From the IMG/VR virus record IMGVR_UViG_2721755498_000006, positions 1 to 52,298 of that record: 52,298 bases of DNA. One strand, 5' to 3'. This document shows, piece by piece, positions 1-44,468 of this stretch (its first letter is position 1; each line of letters opens with the position of its first letter). A model generated the notes under the pieces. That model made no database searches, was not told the origin of the DNA, and worked only from the letters and a program-made list of their open reading frames with translations. The position numbers and the translations under genes were made by a program. This DNA is from a virus (lineage: Duplodnaviria; Heunggongvirae; Uroviricota; Caudoviricetes).

Positions 1-3000
1 ATGCTGAAACGTCTGTTAAGTAAACTGACGGGAAACCGTCAGCAGATAGAACATCACCTAAAAAATCAGTACCAGGTTGAGGAAAACGGACTTAGCTTTC
101 CGCTATCGCTGGTTGATGATTCGCAGCTTTGGGCACTGGCATCCTGGCTAGAACAACTGGCTGAAGAAGACTATCTGATATCACTTACAGACCGGTGGTT
201 GTTGAGTTGGGACGCACTGTATCGCCTGCTGGAGGATGAGGAACATGCCAGCAGCCTGCCTCTTATCGGTGTACCTGACGTACTGCCTTTACGCGCAAGC
301 CTGAGTTCACGAGGAGCATTAAGCGATAGCGATTTTCGCGTCTGGATTGCTGAATGGGCTACGCTTCCAGCCCGCAAGCCGATCCGTTTCAGTCGTACCG
401 GTGCCATTTTAACCCATGAAAATCAGCAATACCTGTTATCGCGTGAAAACTGGGCACTCTTACAGGCAACAGAACAACTCAGTGCACAGAAAAATCAGAC
501 TCCTGGTGAAACCACTAACCAGTTGGGATGGGCCGCTATCCGCAAATGTGCGAAGCAAGCAGCCGCAAAATTTGATGATTATTTAGAAAAAACGCATGTC
601 GTCAAACCAACTTCATTGTCATTACGTCTGCGTAAAGCAACGGTTGCCGATACTGCTGTTATCGAAATTGAGCCCCATTTCGAGGACCAGCCTGCTAACT
701 GGCTAGGCAGTTTTGACAAAAACTCGCAGGTTCACGATAGCTACCGCATCCCTGGAGAGAATGGCGAACTCAGCCATGTCATTATCCCTCCCGAAGTGAA
801 AGAAGTCCTGAATTCAATACACTCGATTCCAGGCCGTCGAGTGGCCGGAAGCGAAGCGCTTTCCTTTGTTCGCAATCCTTATACCTTCCTGGGTGAAGAT
901 GCCGCCAGTGTTATTGCCCCTGAAGAACATGAACAGGCACTGTTTGATGCCAGGATTTTCTTTCATCATTTCAGGTTGATACCGCAACTGAATGCGGAAA
1001 ATAAGATCGCAGAAGTTACGCTGGTACTTGAGCCTGTTTCACCTGTTCCCCAGCCAGAAATCACTTTTGGGTTCTCAGCCCCCCGGGAGCTGGATAAATT
1101 CATACAGCAACTCGGTATTAGCGTCGCTGCACAGATGCCTGCCGGTTCATGGCAAGGTTACGAGCTGGAATTAAGTCAGTTCACTGAACAGCAGTGGCAC
1201 GATTGCCAGGCACTTCTAACTCGCTGGCAGCAAGAAATAGAAGGAAAAGAATTTAGCGATGTGCTGGATATTGCGAAGTATGGCGATCGCGTGATTGGCA
1301 TTGGTGAATTTGAAAAAATCTCCTCTCCCTGGCTGACCAAAGCGCAGAGTGAAAACTGGCTTCCAGATGACATCGATTTCTCCGCGTTTTCAGTCGAAAC
1401 ACTGTCTGGCTGGCAACCTGAAAACCTTCACCATTTCGATGAACTGCAGGAGAGAATTACTCAGGCAGAAGCTGTAGGTGAAACGCATATCACCGCACCA
1501 TGGAATGACAGCCAATTACCGTTGGATGCTGCTAAAACCTTCAGTAAGAACTGGGAAAAACAGCAAAGCACTGCAAATGAATCTCAAGGCAACGTTGCAG
1601 ATAAAACGGCCCGAGCCGTACTCAAAATTGAGCAGAATATTGAAGAAACGGCCTACATCAAACAGCGCCGCAATTCACTCCTCAATGCGCGTCATGCCGA
1701 GCCTGAAATTCCTCTGAGCCTTAAAGAGCATATCCGACTCAAAGACCATCAACGTGAAGGCGTAGCCTGGCTCCAGCAACTCTTCCTTCGTTCACCTGAG
1801 GAAACCGCAGGTTGCCTGCTGGCGGATGATATGGGGCTTGGGAAAACGCTGCAAATTCTGAGCTTCCTGGTATGGTTCATTGAAAAATTCCCGCAAGAAC
1901 CGCCCAGTCTCATTGTTGCTCCTGTCTCTCTTTTAGATAACTGGGAACGTGAACTGGACAATTTCTTCTATACCGCAGGAATACCGGTATTGAAATTGTA
2001 TGGCGAGACCATTAAAGCGGTGAAATATCCCAAACAGGCTATCCCTGCTCATCTGCAATCTCAGGGGATCAAAAACCTGCTTAAACCTGGCTGGCAGGGT
2101 GAGGCGAAAATCATCCTGACAACCTACGAAACGCTTCGCGACCAGGAGTTTTCTCTGGCACGCCAGCCGTGGTCCATTATGGTGTGCGACGAGGCACAAA
2201 AAATAAAAAACCCAGCTGCGTTAATCACACATGCGGCCAACGCGGTACAAGCCAGGTTTAAAGTGGCATGTACAGGAACACCTGTCGAAAACACACTTGT
2301 CGACCTGTGGAGCTTATTTGATTTTGCCCAGCCAGGATTGTTAGGGGCACTAAATGAATTTGGTAAACACTATGTTCGCCCCATCGAGAACGAAGATGGC
2401 CGCGATACGGAACGGTTGGAAAGCCTGCGAGCGCTGATAGAACCTCAGACTTTACGCCGAACCAAAGAAGAGGTTGCGCGTGATTTACCTCAGAAAATTG
2501 AAGTGGAAAGCTGCAAGCAATTGACGTTGTCTGGCGTGCAAAAACAGCTCTACCTTTCGTCCGTTGCAAATTGGCAACAACAGCAAGCACTGAGCGAAGG
2601 GATGCAGCAGGCCGGAACCGGTATGTTAGGTTTGTTACACCGACTGAAACTCATCTGTGCACACCCTGCAGTAGTTAATCCAGAACCACGTTTTCGTGAT
2701 AACTCACCCAAGCTTAACTGGCTGCTGAAAATACTCGCAGAACTAAAACACACCACGAAAGATAAGGTCATTATTTTTACGGAGCTTCGAGATTTACAGC
2801 GCGAACTTCAACATGCGATCCACCAAAAGTTTGGTTTCCGCCCTGTCATTATCAATGGTGATACCAGCACTAAAAGTCAAAGTCAAAACAGCCGCCAGCG
2901 CCTGATTGATGATTTTCAGGCTCAGCCTGGGTTTGGGGTGATTATTCTCTCTACGGTTGCCGTCGGATTCGGCGTTAACGTCCAGAAAGCCAATCATGTT

Positions 3001-3243
3001 ATTCATTTCACTCGCTGCTGGAACCCAGCCAAAGAAGATCAGGCAACAGACCGGGCGTACCGAATTGGGCAAACTAAAGATGTGTATGTCTATTACCCGA
3101 CGGTGAAGGACACTGAAATCACCACATTTGAAGAAACACTGGATGACCTTCTGCAGCGTCGACGTGCATTGGCCAGAGATATGCTCTGCGCTACTCCCGA
3201 TTTGAGTGGTGCGGATTTTGAGGCCATTTTGAAGGGGGCTTAA
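1..3243 (+). CDS. SNF2/Swi2-family helicase-ATPase with ~580-aa N-terminal domain of unknown function; ORF begins at the first base of the window
   Basis: 1080-aa ORF; motifs LLADDMGLGKT (motif I), VCDEAQKIKN (DEAQ box) and QATDRAYRIGQ (motif VI) in the C-terminal half; no motif recognised in the N-terminal half; not RapA-like at the N-terminus. Confidence 0.85.
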   Translation: MLKRLLSKLTGNRQQIEHHLKNQYQVEENGLSFPLSLVDDSQLWALASWLEQLAEEDYLISLTDRWLLSWDALYRLLEDEEHASSLPLIGVPDVLPLRASLSSRGALSDSDFRVWIAEWATLPARKPIRFSRTGAILTHENQQYLLSRENWALLQATEQLSAQKNQTPGETTNQLGWAAIRKCAKQAAAKFDDYLEKTHVVKPTSLSLRLRKATVADTAVIEIEPHFEDQPANWLGSFDKNSQVHDSYRIPGENGELSHVIIPPEVKEVLNSIHSIPGRRVAGSEALSFVRNPYTFLGEDAASVIAPEEHEQALFDARIFFHHFRLIPQLNAENKIAEVTLVLEPVSPVPQPEITFGFSAPRELDKFIQQLGISVAAQMPAGSWQGYELELSQFTEQQWHDCQALLTRWQQEIEGKEFSDVLDIAKYGDRVIGIGEFEKISSPWLTKAQSENWLPDDIDFSAFSVETLSGWQPENLHHFDELQERITQAEAVGETHITAPWNDSQLPLDAAKTFSKNWEKQQSTANESQGNVADKTARAVLKIEQNIEETAYIKQRRNSLLNARHAEPEIPLSLKEHIRLKDHQREGVAWLQQLFLRSPEETAGCLLADDMGLGKTLQILSFLVWFIEKFPQEPPSLIVAPVSLLDNWERELDNFFYTAGIPVLKLYGETIKAVKYPKQAIPAHLQSQGIKNLLKPGWQGEAKIILTTYETLRDQEFSLARQPWSIMVCDEAQKIKNPAALITHAANAVQARFKVACTGTPVENTLVDLWSLFDFAQPGLLGALNEFGKHYVRPIENEDGRDTERLESLRALIEPQTLRRTKEEVARDLPQKIEVESCKQLTLSGVQKQLYLSSVANWQQQQALSEGMQQAGTGMLGLLHRLKLICAHPAVVNPEPRFRDNSPKLNWLLKILAELKHTTKDKVIIFTELRDLQRELQHAIHQKFGFRPVIINGDTSTKSQSQNSRQRLIDDFQAQPGFGVIILSTVAVGFGVNVQKANHVIHFTRCWNPAKEDQATDRAYRIGQTKDVYVYYPTVKDTEITTFEETLDDLLQRRRALARDMLCATPDLSGADFEAILKGA

Positions 3244-7077: not shown

Positions 7078-7126
7078 TGGTGCCGATAATAGGAGTCGAA
7101 CCTACGACCTTCGCATTACGAATGCG
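7078..7126 (-). repeat. att copy: 49-nt direct repeat of the thrW 3' end (plus ~17 nt of matching flank at 7061-7077)
   Basis: tggtgccgataataggagtcgaacctacgaccttcgcattacgaatgcg identical to 50855-50903. Confidence 0.9.
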
Positions 7127-7184
7127 TAAATTGATCTTGTAAAATCAATACCTATCGAATTTAAATGGATTTTTTGCCACAATA

Positions 7185-8288
7185 TTGCCACAGTTCGTTA
7201 GGAATCAGACAGAAATGGCGACTATACGCAAACGTGGTAACTACCAATGGGAAGCTCAAATCCGTAAACGTGGTTTTCCCTCTCAAACCAAAACCTTTAA
7301 CACCAAAGTAGAAGCAGAAGCTTGGGCCAAAATGATCGAGTCAGAAATGGCGAGAGGAGTTTGGCTTAGCCGCAGCGAAGCGGAATCTACGACATTGTAT
7401 GAAGCCCTAACGCGATATGAAAAAGAGATTGTTCCCGACAAAAAAGGGGCAGTGCAAGACCGATCATTGGTGCGGATACTAAAAGCCACTCAGCTGGCGA
7501 AAAACTATATGGCCAGCATCAGGAGTGCCGATGTCGCCAAGCTGAGAGATGAATGGTTGAAAATCTATGCTCCTGCAACCGTTTTAAGGCGTTTGGCCTT
7601 ACTTTCTCATGTATTCAATGTTTCGCGGAAAGAATGGGGCATGGAGAGCCTGCTGAACCCCGTAGAGGCCATTCGCAAACCCCAACCCAAGAACTCCAGG
7701 ACCAGACGCCTGGAAGCGCTGCCTGTAGTTTCTGAGAAAACCGGTGTTACGTCAGGAAAGCAAATAGCCAACGAGATCGAACATATCATCGCCGCAACAC
7801 ATTCATTAGTATTGCCAGCAATCATTCTTCTGGCGTTAGAGACAGCCATGCGCCGTAGCGAAATCGCAGAGCTTCGATGGCGCTTTATCGATCTTGATCG
7901 GCGAGTTGCACATCTGCCGGATACTAAGAATGGTAATGCCCGCGATGTCCCTTTATCAACGAAAGCCATTACGATACTGTCCAGTCTCAAGGAACATTCT
8001 AAGCCAGCTGCTGATAAGGTTTTTGATATGCGTGCAGACGCGATTACCCGAGCTTTTGACCGAGCTGTAAAACGAGCCAGAGAACGATACGAGAAAACAA
8101 ACTCATTATGTGATGAATCTTTCCTTAAAGATTTAAGATTTCATGACCTTCGACATGAAGCAACTTCTCGACTTGCTGAAATTTTCCCTATGCATGAACT
8201 AACCAAAATTACAGGACATAAAGATCCAAGAATGCTAATGCGGTATTATCATCCAAAAGCTGAAGATTTGGCGTTAAAGTTGAAATAA
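7185..8288 (+). CDS. int: tyrosine recombinase / integrase of the middle integrative element
   Basis: R..HxxR..Y catalytic signature (ETAMRRSE, HDLRHEATS, MRYYH); starts ~60 nt from att copy; likely true start at MATIRKRG (~7215); TGCCACAAT-A-TTGCCACA arm-type repeat just upstream. Confidence 0.85.
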   Translation: MPQFVRNQTEMATIRKRGNYQWEAQIRKRGFPSQTKTFNTKVEAEAWAKMIESEMARGVWLSRSEAESTTLYEALTRYEKEIVPDKKGAVQDRSLVRILKATQLAKNYMASIRSADVAKLRDEWLKIYAPATVLRRLALLSHVFNVSRKEWGMESLLNPVEAIRKPQPKNSRTRRLEALPVVSEKTGVTSGKQIANEIEHIIAATHSLVLPAIILLALETAMRRSEIAELRWRFIDLDRRVAHLPDTKNGNARDVPLSTKAITILSSLKEHSKPAADKVFDMRADAITRAFDRAVKRARERYEKTNSLCDESFLKDLRFHDLRHEATSRLAEIFPMHELTKITGHKDPRMLMRYYHPKAEDLALKLK

Positions 8289-9809: not shown

Positions 9810-10760
9810 TTACAACCAGTTCTTCCGCTTAAAGTACAGATACGGTGCCAGGCCCGCGAGGATCATAAAGATAATCGCGGCAGGGTAGCCGAAGCTCCAC
9901 TTCAGTTCTGGCATAAACTCAAAGTTCATGCCATAGCTGGAAGCAACGAGCGTCGGCGGCAGGAATACCACGGATACCACCGAGAAGATTTTGATGATGC
10001 GGTTCTGCTCGATGTTGATAAAACCCATTGCCGCCTGCATCAGGAAGTTCACCTTCTGGAACAGGGATTCGTTATGCGGCAGCAGGGATTCGATATCTCG
10101 CAGGATTTCACGCGCCTGCTCCAGTTGCCCACCCGGTAAACGCGCTTTACGCACCAGGAAGTTGAGCGCGCGCTGGGTATCCATCAGACACAGGCGAACT
10201 TTCCAGCCGATATCTTCCAGTTCCGCCAGAGTGGAGAGCGCCTCGTCGTACTCATCGCCCTGATGCCCTTCCATAATCACCCGGCTCAACTGCTCCAGGT
10301 CGCTATAGATATTTTCAATTTCATCTGCCAACTGTTCGATTTTGGTTTCGAACAGATCCAGCAGCAACTCGTAGGCGTTACCGTCTACCATCGACTGGCT
10401 ACGGGCACGCATACGATACAGACGAAAAGCGGGCAGTTCACGCTCACGCAGAGTAAACAGACGACCATCACGGATGGTAAATGCCACAGTGGAGTTACCG
10501 GCGTGATCTTCCGCATCTTCAAAGAAGAAGAAGGAGTGAATATGCAGGCCGTCGTCGTCTTCAAAGAAACGTGCCGATGCTTCGATGTCTTCCAGTTCCG
10601 GGCGGGTTGCCAGGCTCTGGCCAAGTTCAGATTGTAAGCGCAGTCGCTCGTCGTCGTCCGGTTCGACAAGATCAATCCATACTGCATTTACAAGGGGTTG
10701 TGACTCTTCGACTTCCAGCCGGGTCAGTCGGTTATTTTCCAGTTGAAATGCGCTCAGCAT
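9810..10760 (-). CDS. corA: magnesium/cobalt transporter CorA
   Basis: [34 protein letters not shown] ... [11 protein letters not shown] ... matches E. coli CorA as I recall it; GMN motif present. Confidence 0.95.
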
Positions 10761-33063: not shown

Positions 33064-33139
33064 TGGTGCTGGTTAACGGACTTGAACCGCTACCCATTCG
33101 CTTACAAGGCGACTGCTCTACCATTGGAGCTAAACCAGC
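33064..33139 (-). tRNA. tRNA-Thr (anticodon UGU) in the Q-S interval
   Basis: hand-folded cloverleaf: 7-bp acceptor GCUGGUU/AACCAGC, D-stem GCUC/GAGC, T-loop UUCAAGU, anticodon loop CUUGUAA, 3' CCA encoded. Confidence 0.75.
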
Positions 33140-33144
33140 ATATT

Positions 33145-33219
33145 TGGCGGGACAGCGTGGACTCGAACCACGATAAGAAGGTTAACAGCCTTCCGTAATG
33201 ACCTTTATACGACTGACCC
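33145..33219 (-). tRNA. tRNA-Asn (anticodon GUU)-like, slightly imperfect acceptor and D stems
   Basis: anticodon stem GAAGG/CCUUC, loop CUGUUAA, T-arm CGUGG-UUCGAGU-CCACG, CCA encoded; one U-U mismatch in acceptor stem. Confidence 0.55.
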
Positions 33220-39758: not shown

Positions 39759-40037
39759 TCAGGCCTCGAAGAATTCGCCGTTCTTCGGGGCTTTTTCTTT
39801 TGTCAGCATTCTGGCTACTTTCTTAGCCAGTTCCGCCAACTCCTCGTCTTCAACACCCCACTCCAGCACAGCCAGAAGCATGGCCATCTTTGGGATAAAG
39901 CTGTCTTTCCATCGCGAAATTTGCGATTCATTGATCCCTAATGCATCAGCAACCTTTCGCTGACCACGTACAGCAATTCGATTTAGGATGTTGCTTGTAA
40001 TTGCATTCGCTTTCTTGCGAGTACTTGTAAGTTGCAT
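39759..40037 (-). CDS. cII: CII-like lysogeny activator
   Basis: ...INESQISRWKDSFIPKMAMLLAVLEWGV... matches lambda CII core; start set at MQLTSTRKK. Confidence 0.85.
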   Translation of the reverse strand: MQLTSTRKKANAITSNILNRIAVRGQRKVADALGINESQISRWKDSFIPKMAMLLAVLEWGVEDEELAELAKKVARMLTKEKAPKNGEFFEA

Positions 40038-40093
40038 ATGTAAGTATTTCCTTAACAAATAAGAAGTTATGCGCACCAACTGATGCGCGTTGT

Positions 40094-40139
40094 ATTCCCG
40101 CATTTCGGCGGGAATGAGGACCATGACTGTTAAAGAGCG
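40094..40139 (-). promoter_or_regulatory. nutR: boxA-like CGCTCTTTAA followed by boxB hairpin UUCCCGC-CGAAAU-GCGGGAA
   Basis: read on minus strand between cro stop and cII start; same boxB hairpin recurs at nutL. Confidence 0.6.
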
Positions 40140-40146
40140 GTGTTAC

Positions 40147-40377
40147 TTATGCTGCCTGATTCGGTTTTGGAAACAGGTGTGGCAAATCGGGGCGAATTTC
40201 GTAAGCCTTGATCTGCCCTCCAGTGGCGTTAACGATGGCGGTAACTTTCTCTGGAGAGACCAACCCGCCTTTCAGCCATTTGTGTACTGCTGGCTGCGTT
40301 ACACCACACTTGTCGGCAAGGCGCTTTTGGCTACCGACAATTTTCAAGGCTCGTTGAATTACTAAATTCATGAGCAT
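40147..40377 (-). CDS. cro: Cro-like HTH repressor (start uncertain)
   Basis: small HTH protein ...QKRLADKCGVTQPAVHKWLKGG... divergent from cI across operators. Confidence 0.7.
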   Translation of the reverse strand: MLMNLVIQRALKIVGSQKRLADKCGVTQPAVHKWLKGGLVSPEKVTAIVNATGGQIKAYEIRPDLPHLFPKPNQAA

Positions 40378-40407
40378 ACCTCTTGTGGTCATTACTTATA
40401 ACCAAAG

Positions 40408-40470
40408 ATAACTCAAGTTATAAAAAATAGCAATAACCTTTGTTATTTTACTTTGGATAACCGTAGTTAT
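40408..40470. promoter_or_regulatory. OR operator region: three 14-bp palindromes ATAAC-N4-GTTAT (40408-40421, 40433-40446, 40457-40470) with divergent pR/pRM
   Basis: three evenly spaced inverted repeats between cro and cI starts. Confidence 0.65.
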
Positions 40471-40482
40471 AGATTTGTGAGT

Positions 40483-41190
40483 ATGAAAACATTCGCAGAA
40501 AGACTAAATGCAGCCATGAGCTCAGCAGGGGTATCACAATCACAGCTTGCTGACATGGTTGGAATATCTCAGCCAGCCATACAGAAGATGTCGTCCGGTA
40601 AAACAAACGGATCTCGCAAGATGGTTGAATTAGCCAATGCTTTAAAAGTGCGTCCTGAATGGCTTAGTTCTGGTATTGGTGAAATGAGGGATGGTGCACA
40701 TGAAGAACCATCCAATGTCCGTGAGTCATCTTTAAAAGCTGTTGTATGGGAAGACATTAAAAGAAACGATGACGAGTTTGTTGCGTTGCCTCTTCTTAAC
40801 GTTTCGCTTTCAGCTGGAAGCGGTAGCTGCGAGCTAGAGGAATCATCGGAGTTCTCTTTGGTTTTCAGAAAGCACTATCTGAAAAAGATGGGAGTATCTG
40901 AAAGATCAGCCAAGCTAGTTAGGGTTGTAGGGCAAAGCATGGAACCAACGCTTCACGATGGCGATGTTGTTGGTGTTAACACGCAAGATACCACCATCAG
41001 AGATGGTAAAACCTACGCTATTTGCCAGTCTGATTTGTTACGAGTAAAAACATTAATCGCCACCCCTACATCGGTGATAATCAGATCAATAAATCGCGAA
41101 GAGTACCCGGATGAAGTAATGGATAGAGATGAATTTCATGAAACCGTAAGGATTATTGGCAGAGTATTCTGGTCGTCTCATAGTTGGTAA
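40483..41190 (+). CDS. CI-type repressor (N-terminal HTH, C-terminal S24 LexA-like autopeptidase)
   Basis: HTH QSQLADMVGISQPAIQKM; GQSMEPT Ser motif and downstream RVK; start set at MKTFAER. Confidence 0.9.
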   Translation: MKTFAERLNAAMSSAGVSQSQLADMVGISQPAIQKMSSGKTNGSRKMVELANALKVRPEWLSSGIGEMRDGAHEEPSNVRESSLKAVVWEDIKRNDDEFVALPLLNVSLSAGSGSCELEESSEFSLVFRKHYLKKMGVSERSAKLVRVVGQSMEPTLHDGDVVGVNTQDTTIRDGKTYAICQSDLLRVKTLIATPTSVIIRSINREEYPDEVMDRDEFHETVRIIGRVFWSSHSW

Positions 41191-41230
41191 CCGATAATCA
41201 GAAGAAGACTTACGGAAGTGCGGAGGGATA

Positions 41231-41527
41231 ATGGAATTTCTGATAGTTTTTGTTGTTGTTTTGGTCATCATTCTTTTTGTTTTGCTAAGCATTAGTAAAA
41301 AGCTATCTCAAGTGATTGAACATAGCTCTAATCGCGCAAAAGAAGAAGAGCATCTAATTGATATAAAAGAGATTCTCTCTGATATAAAAATCACATTAGA
41401 TGAAATAAAGTACACAACAGATCTAATTGAACAGTATAAAATACCAACCCCAAACGAGAGAAAAGCAATAGATCAATATCGTATTGACTTAGAAATCGAC
41501 GAAATGCTAAGCAAAAGAAAAGACTAA
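41231..41527 (+). CDS. small membrane protein (one N-terminal TM helix + acidic coiled-coil) in the cI-adjacent rex/superinfection-exclusion slot
   Basis: 98-aa AT-rich ORF; GGAGGG SD; co-oriented with cI and followed by terminator. Confidence 0.6.
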   Translation: MEFLIVFVVVLVIILFVLLSISKKLSQVIEHSSNRAKEEEHLIDIKEILSDIKITLDEIKYTTDLIEQYKIPTPNERKAIDQYRIDLEIDEMLSKRKD

Positions 41528-41532
41528 AAACA

Positions 41533-41560
41533 CCCGGCCTCAGCGCCGGGTTTTCTTTTC
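41533..41560 (+). terminator. intrinsic terminator ending the cI-immunity transcript (tIMM-like)
   Basis: CCCGGC-loop-GCCGGG then TTTTCTTTTC. Confidence 0.75.
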
Positions 41561-41687
41561 CTGCCGTTCACCACCCAATCACCCATCATCATCATAGACA
41601 AGCATCAAGCCAAAGGTAACACCTTCACCCCGCACGCAAGCCCTCAAACACCAATCAATCAGCAACATTTACAAAAATAAAATACCT

Positions 41688-41766
41688 TTGTTATCCATCA
41701 CTTATAACTTATTTACCACAAAATATAAATTAGGTTATTGACCACACCTATAACCTAAGTTATCTT
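41688..41766 (+). promoter_or_regulatory. OL/pL: operator ATAACCTAAGTTAT (41750-41763) plus degenerate site; candidate -35 TTGACC (41738-41743) and -10 TATCTT (41761-41766)
   Basis: same operator family as OR; 17-bp spacing. Confidence 0.55.
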
Positions 41767-41811: not shown

Positions 41812-41853
41812 GGCTCTTTAACATTGATGGGATTGTCCCGCCGAAATGCGGGA
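41812..41853 (+). promoter_or_regulatory. nutL: boxA-like GCTCTTTAA and boxB hairpin UCCCGCCGAAAUGCGGGA
   Basis: boxB identical to the nutR hairpin; in the N leader. Confidence 0.6.
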
Positions 41854-42047: not shown

Positions 42048-42320
42048 ATGACAGTAGTCATTACATATCTGGCTGACGATAACGCCAGAAATCGCCGCAG
42101 AGCACGCAGACAGGCTCAACGTGAACAGGCAATGCAAGAGCAGCGACTGGCACGAAAAATTGCGCTAAAGCTATCTGGTTGCGTCAGAGCAGATAAAGCA
42201 GCATCACTCGGAAGCCTTCGCTGCAAGAAGGCAGATGAATGCAGTGGAAGTATTTGTCTTCCAAACGTAGCCATTTACGCGGCAGGCTACCGGAAATCAA
42301 AACAACTGACAGCGAGGTAA
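42048..42320 (+). CDS. N-type antiterminator (P22 gp24-like)
   Basis: Arg-rich motif NARNRRRARRQAQREQ; C-terminus LPNVAIYAAGYRKSKQLTAR like P22 gp24 as recalled. Confidence 0.85.
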   Translation: MTVVITYLADDNARNRRRARRQAQREQAMQEQRLARKIALKLSGCVRADKAASLGSLRCKKADECSGSICLPNVAIYAAGYRKSKQLTAR

Positions 42321-43499: not shown

Positions 43500-44468
43500 A
43501 TGAGTGAAGTAACAGATTTAGTTGTTATTGAAAAAGCAAATGCAATGACTGTATTTCAGTCTGCCGACCAGATTGAAGAAATCCTTCAAAAGGTTGAACG
43601 TGAAGTTATGTCCTTTGTGCCTGATATCACAACGGCAAAGGGCAGAAAGGAGATCGCTTCTCTGGCGTATAAAGTTGCGCAGACGAAAACATATCTCGAT
43701 GGTCTTGGCAAAGACCTTGTTGCTGAACTTAAGGAAATTCCAAAGCTAATTGATGCCAACCGCAAGACAGTGCGTGATCGCCTTGATGAACTGAAAGCCA
43801 AGGCGCGCCAGCCTCTTACTGATTATGAGGAGGAGCAGGCGCGGATTAAAGCCGAAGAAGAAGCTAAGGCAGCAGCTGAAGCTCTCGCAAAGCAAATTGA
43901 GTCTGACCATGAAATAGCGATTTTGATGGATCGCGAATTTGACCGCCAAAGAGAAGAGGCAAGACTCAAAGCGGAGCAGGAAAAGCGAGAGCATGAAGAA
44001 CGCTTAAAAAGAGAAGCTGAAGAGAAAGCCAGATCTGAAGCCGAAGCAAAGGCAAAAGCCGAAATTGAAGCAGCAGCAAGGCGAGAAGCAGAAGCTAAGG
44101 CCGCAGCGGAACGTGCAGAGCGTGAACGCATTGAAGCCGAGCAACGAGCACAGCGCGAAGCAAAAGAGGCAGCAGAACGAGCTGAAAGAGAAAAGCAGGC
44201 GGCAATTGAAGCAGAACGCCGAAAAGCACAGGAGGAGGCTGAACGAATCCGGCGCGAAGCTGAAGCAAAAGAGCAAGCCAGAATAGCAGAAGAAAAAAGA
44301 ATCAAGGACGAAGAAGAGCGTAGAGCAAAGGATAAAGCTCACCGGAAAGAAGTAAATAACAAAATACTTGCTGACCTTATCAAGGTTGGTGCATCAGAAG
44401 ATGTTGCTAAAAATATCATAACACCCATCGTAAAAGGCGAAGTATTCGCAACAAAAATAACCTACTAA
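43500..44468 (+). CDS. protein with ~100-aa N-terminal domain and long E/R/K/A-rich charged helical region
   Basis: 322-aa ORF; ~200 residues of EAKAKAEIEAAARREAEAKAAAERAERERIEAEQRAQREAKE... low complexity. Confidence 0.55.
   Translation: MSEVTDLVVIEKANAMTVFQSADQIEEILQKVEREVMSFVPDITTAKGRKEIASLAYKVAQTKTYLDGLGKDLVAELKEIPKLIDANRKTVRDRLDELKAKARQPLTDYEEEQARIKAEEEAKAAAEALAKQIESDHEIAILMDREFDRQREEARLKAEQEKREHEERLKREAEEKARSEAEAKAKAEIEAAARREAEAKAAAERAERERIEAEQRAQREAKEAAERAEREKQAAIEAERRKAQEEAERIRREAEAKEQARIAEEKRIKDEEERRAKDKAHRKEVNNKILADLIKVGASEDVAKNIITPIVKGEVFATKITY

Follow-up and report, generated by a model that had tools for sequence, protein, structure and literature searches.

orf98, a small membrane-protein gene between cI and N of a P22-like Escherichia coli prophage, is a candidate exclusion or abortive-infection gene

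Several superinfection-exclusion proteins are small proteins of the inner membrane, including T4 Imm and Sp, HK97 gp15, P22 SieA, and lactococcal Sie2009, and the prophage peptide DicB can be grouped with them. These factors are expressed from a prophage or early, each acts as a single gene at the cytoplasmic membrane, and there is precedent among small prophage membrane proteins for blocking genome entry. BstA is a much larger protein than the one considered here; it is soluble and DNA-associated and comes with the aba self-immunity element. Both bstA and the lambda genes rexAB are abortive-infection systems held in the interval between cI and N, a mosaic hotspot, where they are driven by the highly active repressor promoter (PMC8585504). 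In BTP1 and other prophages, bstA is one gene, lies 3' of cI, and ends at a Rho-independent terminator of its own, and its synteny with the repressor is kept across diverse prophages (PMC8585504). The Rex system includes a membrane component, the inner-membrane protein RexB (PMC8585504), and a preprint proposes that Rex acts on the transition from lysogeny to lysis (bioRxiv 10.1101/2021.04.19.439022).

Here, we describe orf98, a gene for a 98-residue protein that occupies the same slot as lambda rexA and rexB, from cI to OL, on the same strand as cI and terminated before OL/pL. Like RexAB, it would provide a membrane component. However, orf98 is one gene with a single transmembrane (TM) segment and no RexA-like sensor, whereas lambda Rex consists of two genes and RexB is polytopic; the Rex family was absent from the PHROGs, Pfam, PADLOC, and profile-search matches of orf98. 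With bstA it shares the single-gene organization, the position downstream of cI, the terminator of its own, and the synteny with the repressor across diverse prophages, but the product, a 98-residue membrane anchor, has no similarity to BstA. It resembles the small exclusion proteins and DicB in being small, encoded by a single gene, and, by prediction, membrane-associated, but differs in that its functional domain is predicted to be cytoplasmic. None of Imm, Sp, gp15, SieA, Sie2009, or DicB was recovered with orf98 in an exhaustive profile search or in PHROGs.

Layout and transcription of the immunity region

The window (the whole stretch of 52,298 nucleotides that was analyzed) matches the chromosome of E. 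coli strain H1 at 100% in every stretch compared, and the annotation of the H1 record places a P22-like prophage, integrated at tRNA-Thr/proA, in it. The immunity region has cro pointing one way and, in the other direction, cI, orf98, a terminator, OL/pL, and N, as expected from the placement in the rexAB slot that had been proposed from the sequence. The features of this region are as follows.

39759-40124, minus strand: cII
40147-40392, minus strand: cro
40408-40470, no strand: OR, three operator palindromes ATAACnnnnGTTAT at 40408, 40433, and 40457, between cro and cI
40483-41190, plus strand: cI-type repressor, 235 aa (HTH_3 and Peptidase_S24; phrog_4)
41193-41662, no strand: variable cargo slot, from the end of cI to the OL-proximal conserved block
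41221-41554, plus strand: portable cassette of Shine-Dalgarno sequence, orf98, and terminator stem, about 80% identical to Citrobacter prophages
41222-41227, plus strand: Shine-Dalgarno sequence GGAGGG, 3 nt before the ATG of orf98
41231-41527, plus strand: orf98, 98 aa, ATG start (ORF call; RefSeq hypothetical protein WP_000394871.1)
41532-41561, plus strand: intrinsic terminator, 7-bp stem (6 G-C pairs) then T-run (hairpin folding)
41725-41766, plus strand: OL operators ATAACnnnnGTTAT at 41725 and 41750, overlapping the pL-like promoter
41738-41766, plus strand: pL-like promoter, TTGACC-17-TATCTT (promoter-like site)
42048-42320, plus strand: N-type antiterminator, 90 aa, arginine-rich N-terminus (PF25694, E 1e-15; phrog_271)

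The start codon of RefSeq WP_000846394.1 is the same ATG as that of the cI call at 40483, and CIII is also encoded in the window. The operator pattern ATAACnnnnGTTAT occurs six times in the window against 1.5 matches expected, and five of the six lie at OR or OL. A boxA-like GCTCTTTAACA, read directly from the sequence at about 41814-41824 and followed by a short GC hairpin, would fit a candidate nutL site on the pL transcript.

The original prediction described a 98-residue, AT-rich gene that has a good Shine-Dalgarno sequence, is co-transcribed with cI, and is closed by a strong terminator before OL/pL, and each of these elements was recovered, co-transcription by inference. The ORF has a GC content of 30.6% (GC3 27%), compared with 43.4% for cI and 46.9% for the window. 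The terminator stem (41532-41551) forms seven pairs, six of them G-C, and is followed by TTTCTTTT (-13.7 kcal/mol, z = -2.2); the site is the sole terminator-like one between cro and N, and, given the A-run upstream of it, looks as if it works on both strands. The gap of 40 bp between the cI stop codon and orf98 is free of terminator-like sites. A search for a promoter of orf98 itself gave nothing above chance, the best candidate being a 9/12 promoter-like site inside cI (41156-41184) that is matched by the shuffled expectation. Since the gap is 0-54 bp in nine lambdoid loci and no promoter stands out, co-transcription of cI and orf98 from the repressor promoters appears to be the only economical reading.

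From the terminator to OL, the spacer (41562-41662) is strongly C-rich on the plus strand, with a GC skew of about -0.4 to -0.46. It is kept with the cassette at 94-100% in the E. coli loci and is missing from phages in which the same cI is followed by different cargo. Neither an ORF nor an Rfam match accounted for the C-rich stretch, and the search of the window spacer for a remnant of a convergent DUF2767 gene found none. A published small RNA, svsR, lies at the 3' end of cI in a different phage; an Rfam scan for a small RNA in the cI-N interval gave no match.

Other parts of the window are recorded here as observations. The type I Zorya gene zorD (positions 1-3243) is truncated by the window edge and lies outside the prophage according to the H1 RefSeq annotation. 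A separate integrase (7215-8288) is found at tRNA-Ser (7078-7189), and corA (9810-10760), in the segment 8981-12169, is flanked by two IS1A copies and adjoins integrase remnants and the tailspike/O-antigen acyltransferase end of the prophage. A tRNA-Asn and tRNA-Thr pair (about 33064-33219) is just downstream of the prophage Q antiterminator gene (RefSeq). The pL operon encodes a 322-residue protein rich in E, A, and K, annotated as TolA-like (43500-44468), and the corresponding position is filled by genes of 322-323 aa in the loci from Citrobacter and the Erwinia-like ones (L002, L045, L046, and Midgardsormr38).

Architecture and relatives of the orf98 protein

The protein can be divided into five parts, given here by residue.

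3-21: TM anchor, N-terminal
23-43: linker, variable
42-68: heptad helix
70-74: KIPTP turn
74-97: C-terminal helix, conserved

One N-terminal TM helix and an acidic coiled-coil tail had been predicted. The TM helix was borne out: residues 3-21 are the sole hydrophobic segment (Kyte-Doolittle 19-mer maximum 3.67), and the segment is purely hydrophobic, with no evident pore-forming features. The coiled coil is represented by the heptad of residues 42-68, with L-I-L-I-L-I-T-I at the a and d positions, and the tail as a whole (residues 23-98) is only mildly acidic (18 D/E, 14 K/R, pI 5.2). AlphaFold2 models the protein as helices 2-38, 45-68, and 74-97, or as helices 2-68 and 74-97, with a pLDDT of 80-81. 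All 17 family members have no K or R before the TM segment and one to three just after it, so that, by the positive-inside rule, we infer a topology with the N-terminus outside and the helical domain in the cytoplasm.

The statement that orf98 belongs to no recognized family also stood, in that the only family found was PHROG 18389 (phrog_18389, function unknown), which matches the protein over its full length (residues 1-98 to positions 1-98, E 1.8e-61). When 1.84 billion cluster representatives were searched exhaustively with a profile, only 14 relatives (94-126 aa) were found at E < 1e-3. The alignment of the family has three parts, namely an N-terminal TM segment that is conserved, a linker whose length varies, and a C-terminal block that reads I-K-Y-T-T-D-x-I-E-K-Y-K-L-P-x-x-x-E-R-x-x-I-D-x-I-R-I-D-x-E-I; Y69, P72, D81, and E88 are invariant down to 26% identity. 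There was no significant match for orf98 in Pfam, NCBIfam, or PADLOC, and none of the 17 aligned members carries a Pfam domain. Likeness to a known exclusion or defense protein was sought in PADLOC, PHROGs, Pfam, and NCBIfam, and none was found. Fold searches gave either zero matches or generic long helices, and a PDB sequence-profile search found no solved structure for the family. The family had zero copies in 100,044 species-representative genomes (GTDB), and no paper found in the literature names WP_000394871.

Several candidate identities were considered and rejected. MotB/ZorB-type stator anchors have a conserved acidic residue in the TM segment and a peptidoglycan-binding or large C-terminal domain; the TM segment of orf98, LIVFVVVLVIILFVLLSI, has neither D nor E, and the protein ends at residue 98. 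The sole match in PADLOC-DB v2 was to ZorB3 (E 0.01, 13 bits, over the TM region), and it and the weak NCBIfam and PDB matches to MotB/ZorB were judged compositional. The PDB profile matches were designed coiled coils only, over the TM and stalk region. Kinship with the SHOCT domain (PF09851), raised by a neighbor of the homologue on contig L043, received an hhalign probability of 0.1%, and no member matches the Pfam model. The IMG/VR locus L041 was discarded as a pattern-driven chance match within a giant ORF. As judged from its sequence, orf98 is outside Rex, BstA, every PADLOC family, MotB/ZorB, and SHOCT, whose defining sequence features it lacks; it would best be filed as an uncharacterized, lysogen-expressed accessory gene of the lambdoid cI-N hotspot, a kind that is already known.

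Distribution and exchange of slot cargo

Among 5426 complete E. coli genomes, 99 carry the orf98 cassette at 97.5-100% identity, on the chromosome every time; 98 of these 99 contain at least 80% of it, and the identity at the best place is at least 95% in all of them. Carriers, about 2% of complete E. coli genomes, include O26:H11 and O111:H8 strains. The exact protein is found on 603 contigs and is labeled hypothetical in every source, save for one evident mislabel in IMG. Among 50,697 phage records, the sole carrier is that of the Stx1a-converting phage Stx1a_10051. A link to the Stx1 phage H-19B was dropped; the copy in strain H19 sits in a defective prophage of P22-like, non-Stx type. For homologues with 73-77% identical proteins, synonymous divergence from the window gene is about 0.8-1.4 per site. 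In comparisons between divergent homologues, the dN/dS of the whole gene is 0.11-0.16, that of residues 44-98 is 0.04-0.08, and that of the linker (residues 23-43) is 0.16-0.45. Thus, orf98 is a real gene under purifying selection.

We compared 12 distinct genomic contexts, nine of which are lambdoid immunity regions (the window, L002, L007/L009, L010, L044, L045, L046, L047/L048, and L050/L051). In all nine, the order is cII and cro on one strand and cI followed by the homologue on the other, CII is encoded, and the homologue (35-77% identical) is preceded by a Shine-Dalgarno sequence and lies 0-54 bp 3' of cI on the same strand, the gap being 0 bp in L050. Seven of the loci have an N call farther downstream; the contigs of L010 and L050 end before N. 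A stable hairpin is found 3' of the homologue in every case, with a direct T-run in all except L010 and L046. The GC content of the homologues (29-41%) is always below that of their own adjacent cI (43-50%). Several types can be told apart among the repressors, with little or no relationship between them (about 20% identity in many pairs), and the homologues are paired with unrelated cI, cro, and N types. The window and the Citrobacter loci share nucleotide homology only over 41221-41554, from the Shine-Dalgarno sequence to the terminator stem, at about 80% identity, and the cI of the Citrobacter prophages that share this cassette is unrelated to the cI of the window. Within E. coli and IMG/VR, cro, cI, the cassette, and the spacer form one block that is 94-100% identical, and N varies. 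It is striking that this position is kept behind unrelated repressors by homologues as little as 35% identical.

The prediction tied the gene to the slot beside the repressor, and this held for nine of the 12 contexts but not for three more distant relatives (26-35% identical). One of these stands alone on a Rep3 plasmid-like contig, where an AT-rich intergenic region precedes it, another is located away from a repressor on a contig of a Pelagicoccus draft genome, and the third, on contig L043, is beside a SHOCT-domain lipoprotein. Apart from that one SHOCT domain, their neighbors had no Pfam or PADLOC identity. Since these members are on a plasmid-like contig or non-enteric chromosomes, an orf98-type protein can apparently do without the components of the lambda switch.

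In many related prophages, a small gene (68-88 aa) that converges on the cI-side cargo is located between the cargo and OL (L002:8324-8530(-), L007:5324-5548(-), L010:1138-1347(-), and L044:2402-2611(-); compare L005:3943-4209(-)). The gene in L010 encodes a DUF2767 protein (Pfam, E 1e-34). Where the small gene is present, it and the orf98 homologue use one bidirectional terminator; the window is without the convergent gene.

Turnover of the slot in related prophages, which had been suggested as a check, is seen in SH2026Stx1 and PA28, whose cI proteins are 93% and 79% identical to that of the window and whose slots hold different cargo. Homology between the window and these phages breaks at 41190-41192 and resumes at 41663/41673. 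In SH2026Stx1, the slot contains a DUF3024 protein (L004:3829-4170) that matches the PADLOC defense candidate PDC-S43 (E 7e-42), followed by ORFs of 177 and 44 aa; in PA28, an ORF of 88 aa runs there on the opposite strand. Outside the immunity module, Erwinia phage Midgardsormr38 and L046 are 94% identical; in its cI-N slot, behind a different repressor, the phage encodes a P63C-domain protein (L053:5457-6341). Facultative cargo and turnover of the slot are supported by these comparisons. With its patchy presence in close phages, deviant base composition, and own terminator, orf98 has the features of a moron, and would work like a moron of the rex slot.

Possible roles in the lysogen

We propose that orf98 belongs to the prophage immunity module as an accessory gene of the moron-like kind. 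Judging from the operon layout, it would be transcribed with cI from PRM and PRE, so its product would be made in the lysogen, and the transcript would stop at the gene's own terminator before pL, which may also be shielded from read-through by this site. The product would be a single-pass inner-membrane protein with a two-residue N-terminus outside and a cytoplasmic helical domain of about 75 residues, in which a coiled-coil stalk is followed by a strongly conserved helix-turn-helix hairpin that would probably bind a partner on the inner side of the membrane. Protection of the lysogen against other phages is the role that we tentatively favor, and it seems to us quite possible, if somewhat short of probable. 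It is favored because the known occupants of the slot, RexAB and BstA, are abortive-infection systems (PMC8585504), because the defense candidate PDC-S43 alternates with orf98 behind the same repressor, because the slot cargo is facultative, and because there is precedent for small prophage membrane proteins that block genome entry. The likelier mode would be superinfection exclusion, in which orf98 would interfere with entry of the genome or with a host factor of the inner membrane on which incoming phages depend; action as a membrane-acting abortive-infection effector would be less likely. An anti-phage role is plausible, and orf98 is read as a candidate exclusion or abortive-infection gene from its position and architecture, the slot position being suggestive of function, not diagnostic. 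A more specific version, which we regard as possible while leaning against it, is that the orf98 family is an unrecognized single-protein, inner-membrane-tethered system hard-wired to prophage repressor operons, in which the hairpin (Y69, P72, D81, and E88) would bind a host or phage component and either stop incoming genomes or kill infected cells.

The same architecture would suit a lysogenic-conversion factor that, from a membrane tether, binds and modulates a transporter, sensor kinase, protease, or other inner-membrane protein of the host and confers a benefit unrelated to phage attack. A single TM segment with a short cytoplasmic helical domain resembles many small membrane-protein regulators, distant homologues occur outside phages beside envelope or lipoprotein genes, and retention of the C-terminal hairpin across Enterobacterales and in the Pelagicoccus member suggests a conserved cellular partner. 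However, nine of the 12 contexts are prophage immunity regions, the slot cargo elsewhere includes a defense candidate, and the rarity of the family (14 of 1.84 billion representatives, and none of 100,044 species-representative genomes) would be unusual for a generally useful host function. We consider this explanation unlikely, though it deserves attention. Somewhat more doubtful still is a part for orf98 in the lysis-lysogeny circuit, in which it would be expressed from PRE and PRM and tune how lysogeny is established, how stable it is, or how it is induced, for instance through FtsH/HflKC-dependent turnover of CII or through the switch, as proposed for RexAB. The tight linkage to cI in the lambdoid loci, with presumed use of the same promoters, would be consistent with such a part, as would the presence of CII in all nine of these loci, the near-identity of the cro-cI-orf98-spacer block in E. 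coli (94-100%), and the role in the lysogenic-to-lytic transition put forward for Rex in the preprint cited above (bioRxiv 10.1101/2021.04.19.439022). Yet the module can dispense with orf98, as the same cI occurs with other slot cargo; the family is paired with unrelated cI, cro, and N types, some distant members are found in contexts without cI or cII, and CIII is already encoded in the window. We disfavor a role in the core switch because distant homologues stand alone and cargo is freely exchanged.

Finally, a small, AT-rich ORF without a known domain could be non-functional or decaying, or its DNA could serve merely as a 3' stabilizer and terminator carrier for the cI transcript. This is very improbable, given dN/dS values of 0.04-0.16 at a synonymous divergence of about 0.8-1.4 per site, a conserved length of 94-126 aa, four residues that are invariant down to 26% identity, and the near-complete retention of the cassette in E. 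coli (at least 80% of it in 98 of 99 genomes, with best-place identity of at least 95% in 99 of 99).

Every lysogen expresses the cI-N interval of its lambdoid prophage, the interval that earlier yielded RexAB and BstA. In this slot, behind at least eight different repressors, the family of this 98-aa protein has been kept, and its C-terminal hairpin is under strong purifying selection. With four invariant residues, one TM segment, and a 334-bp cassette, orf98 is easy to dissect. Anti-phage activity, if true, would extend a familiar theme and not overturn one, and would place orf98 among the smallest self-contained defense proteins; the more specific tethered system, if true, would open a new mechanistic class among minimal prophage defenses, found across the lambdoid phages of Enterobacterales. 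If orf98 excludes phages, it would affect the spread and coexistence of prophages, Stx phages included, in these E. coli lineages.
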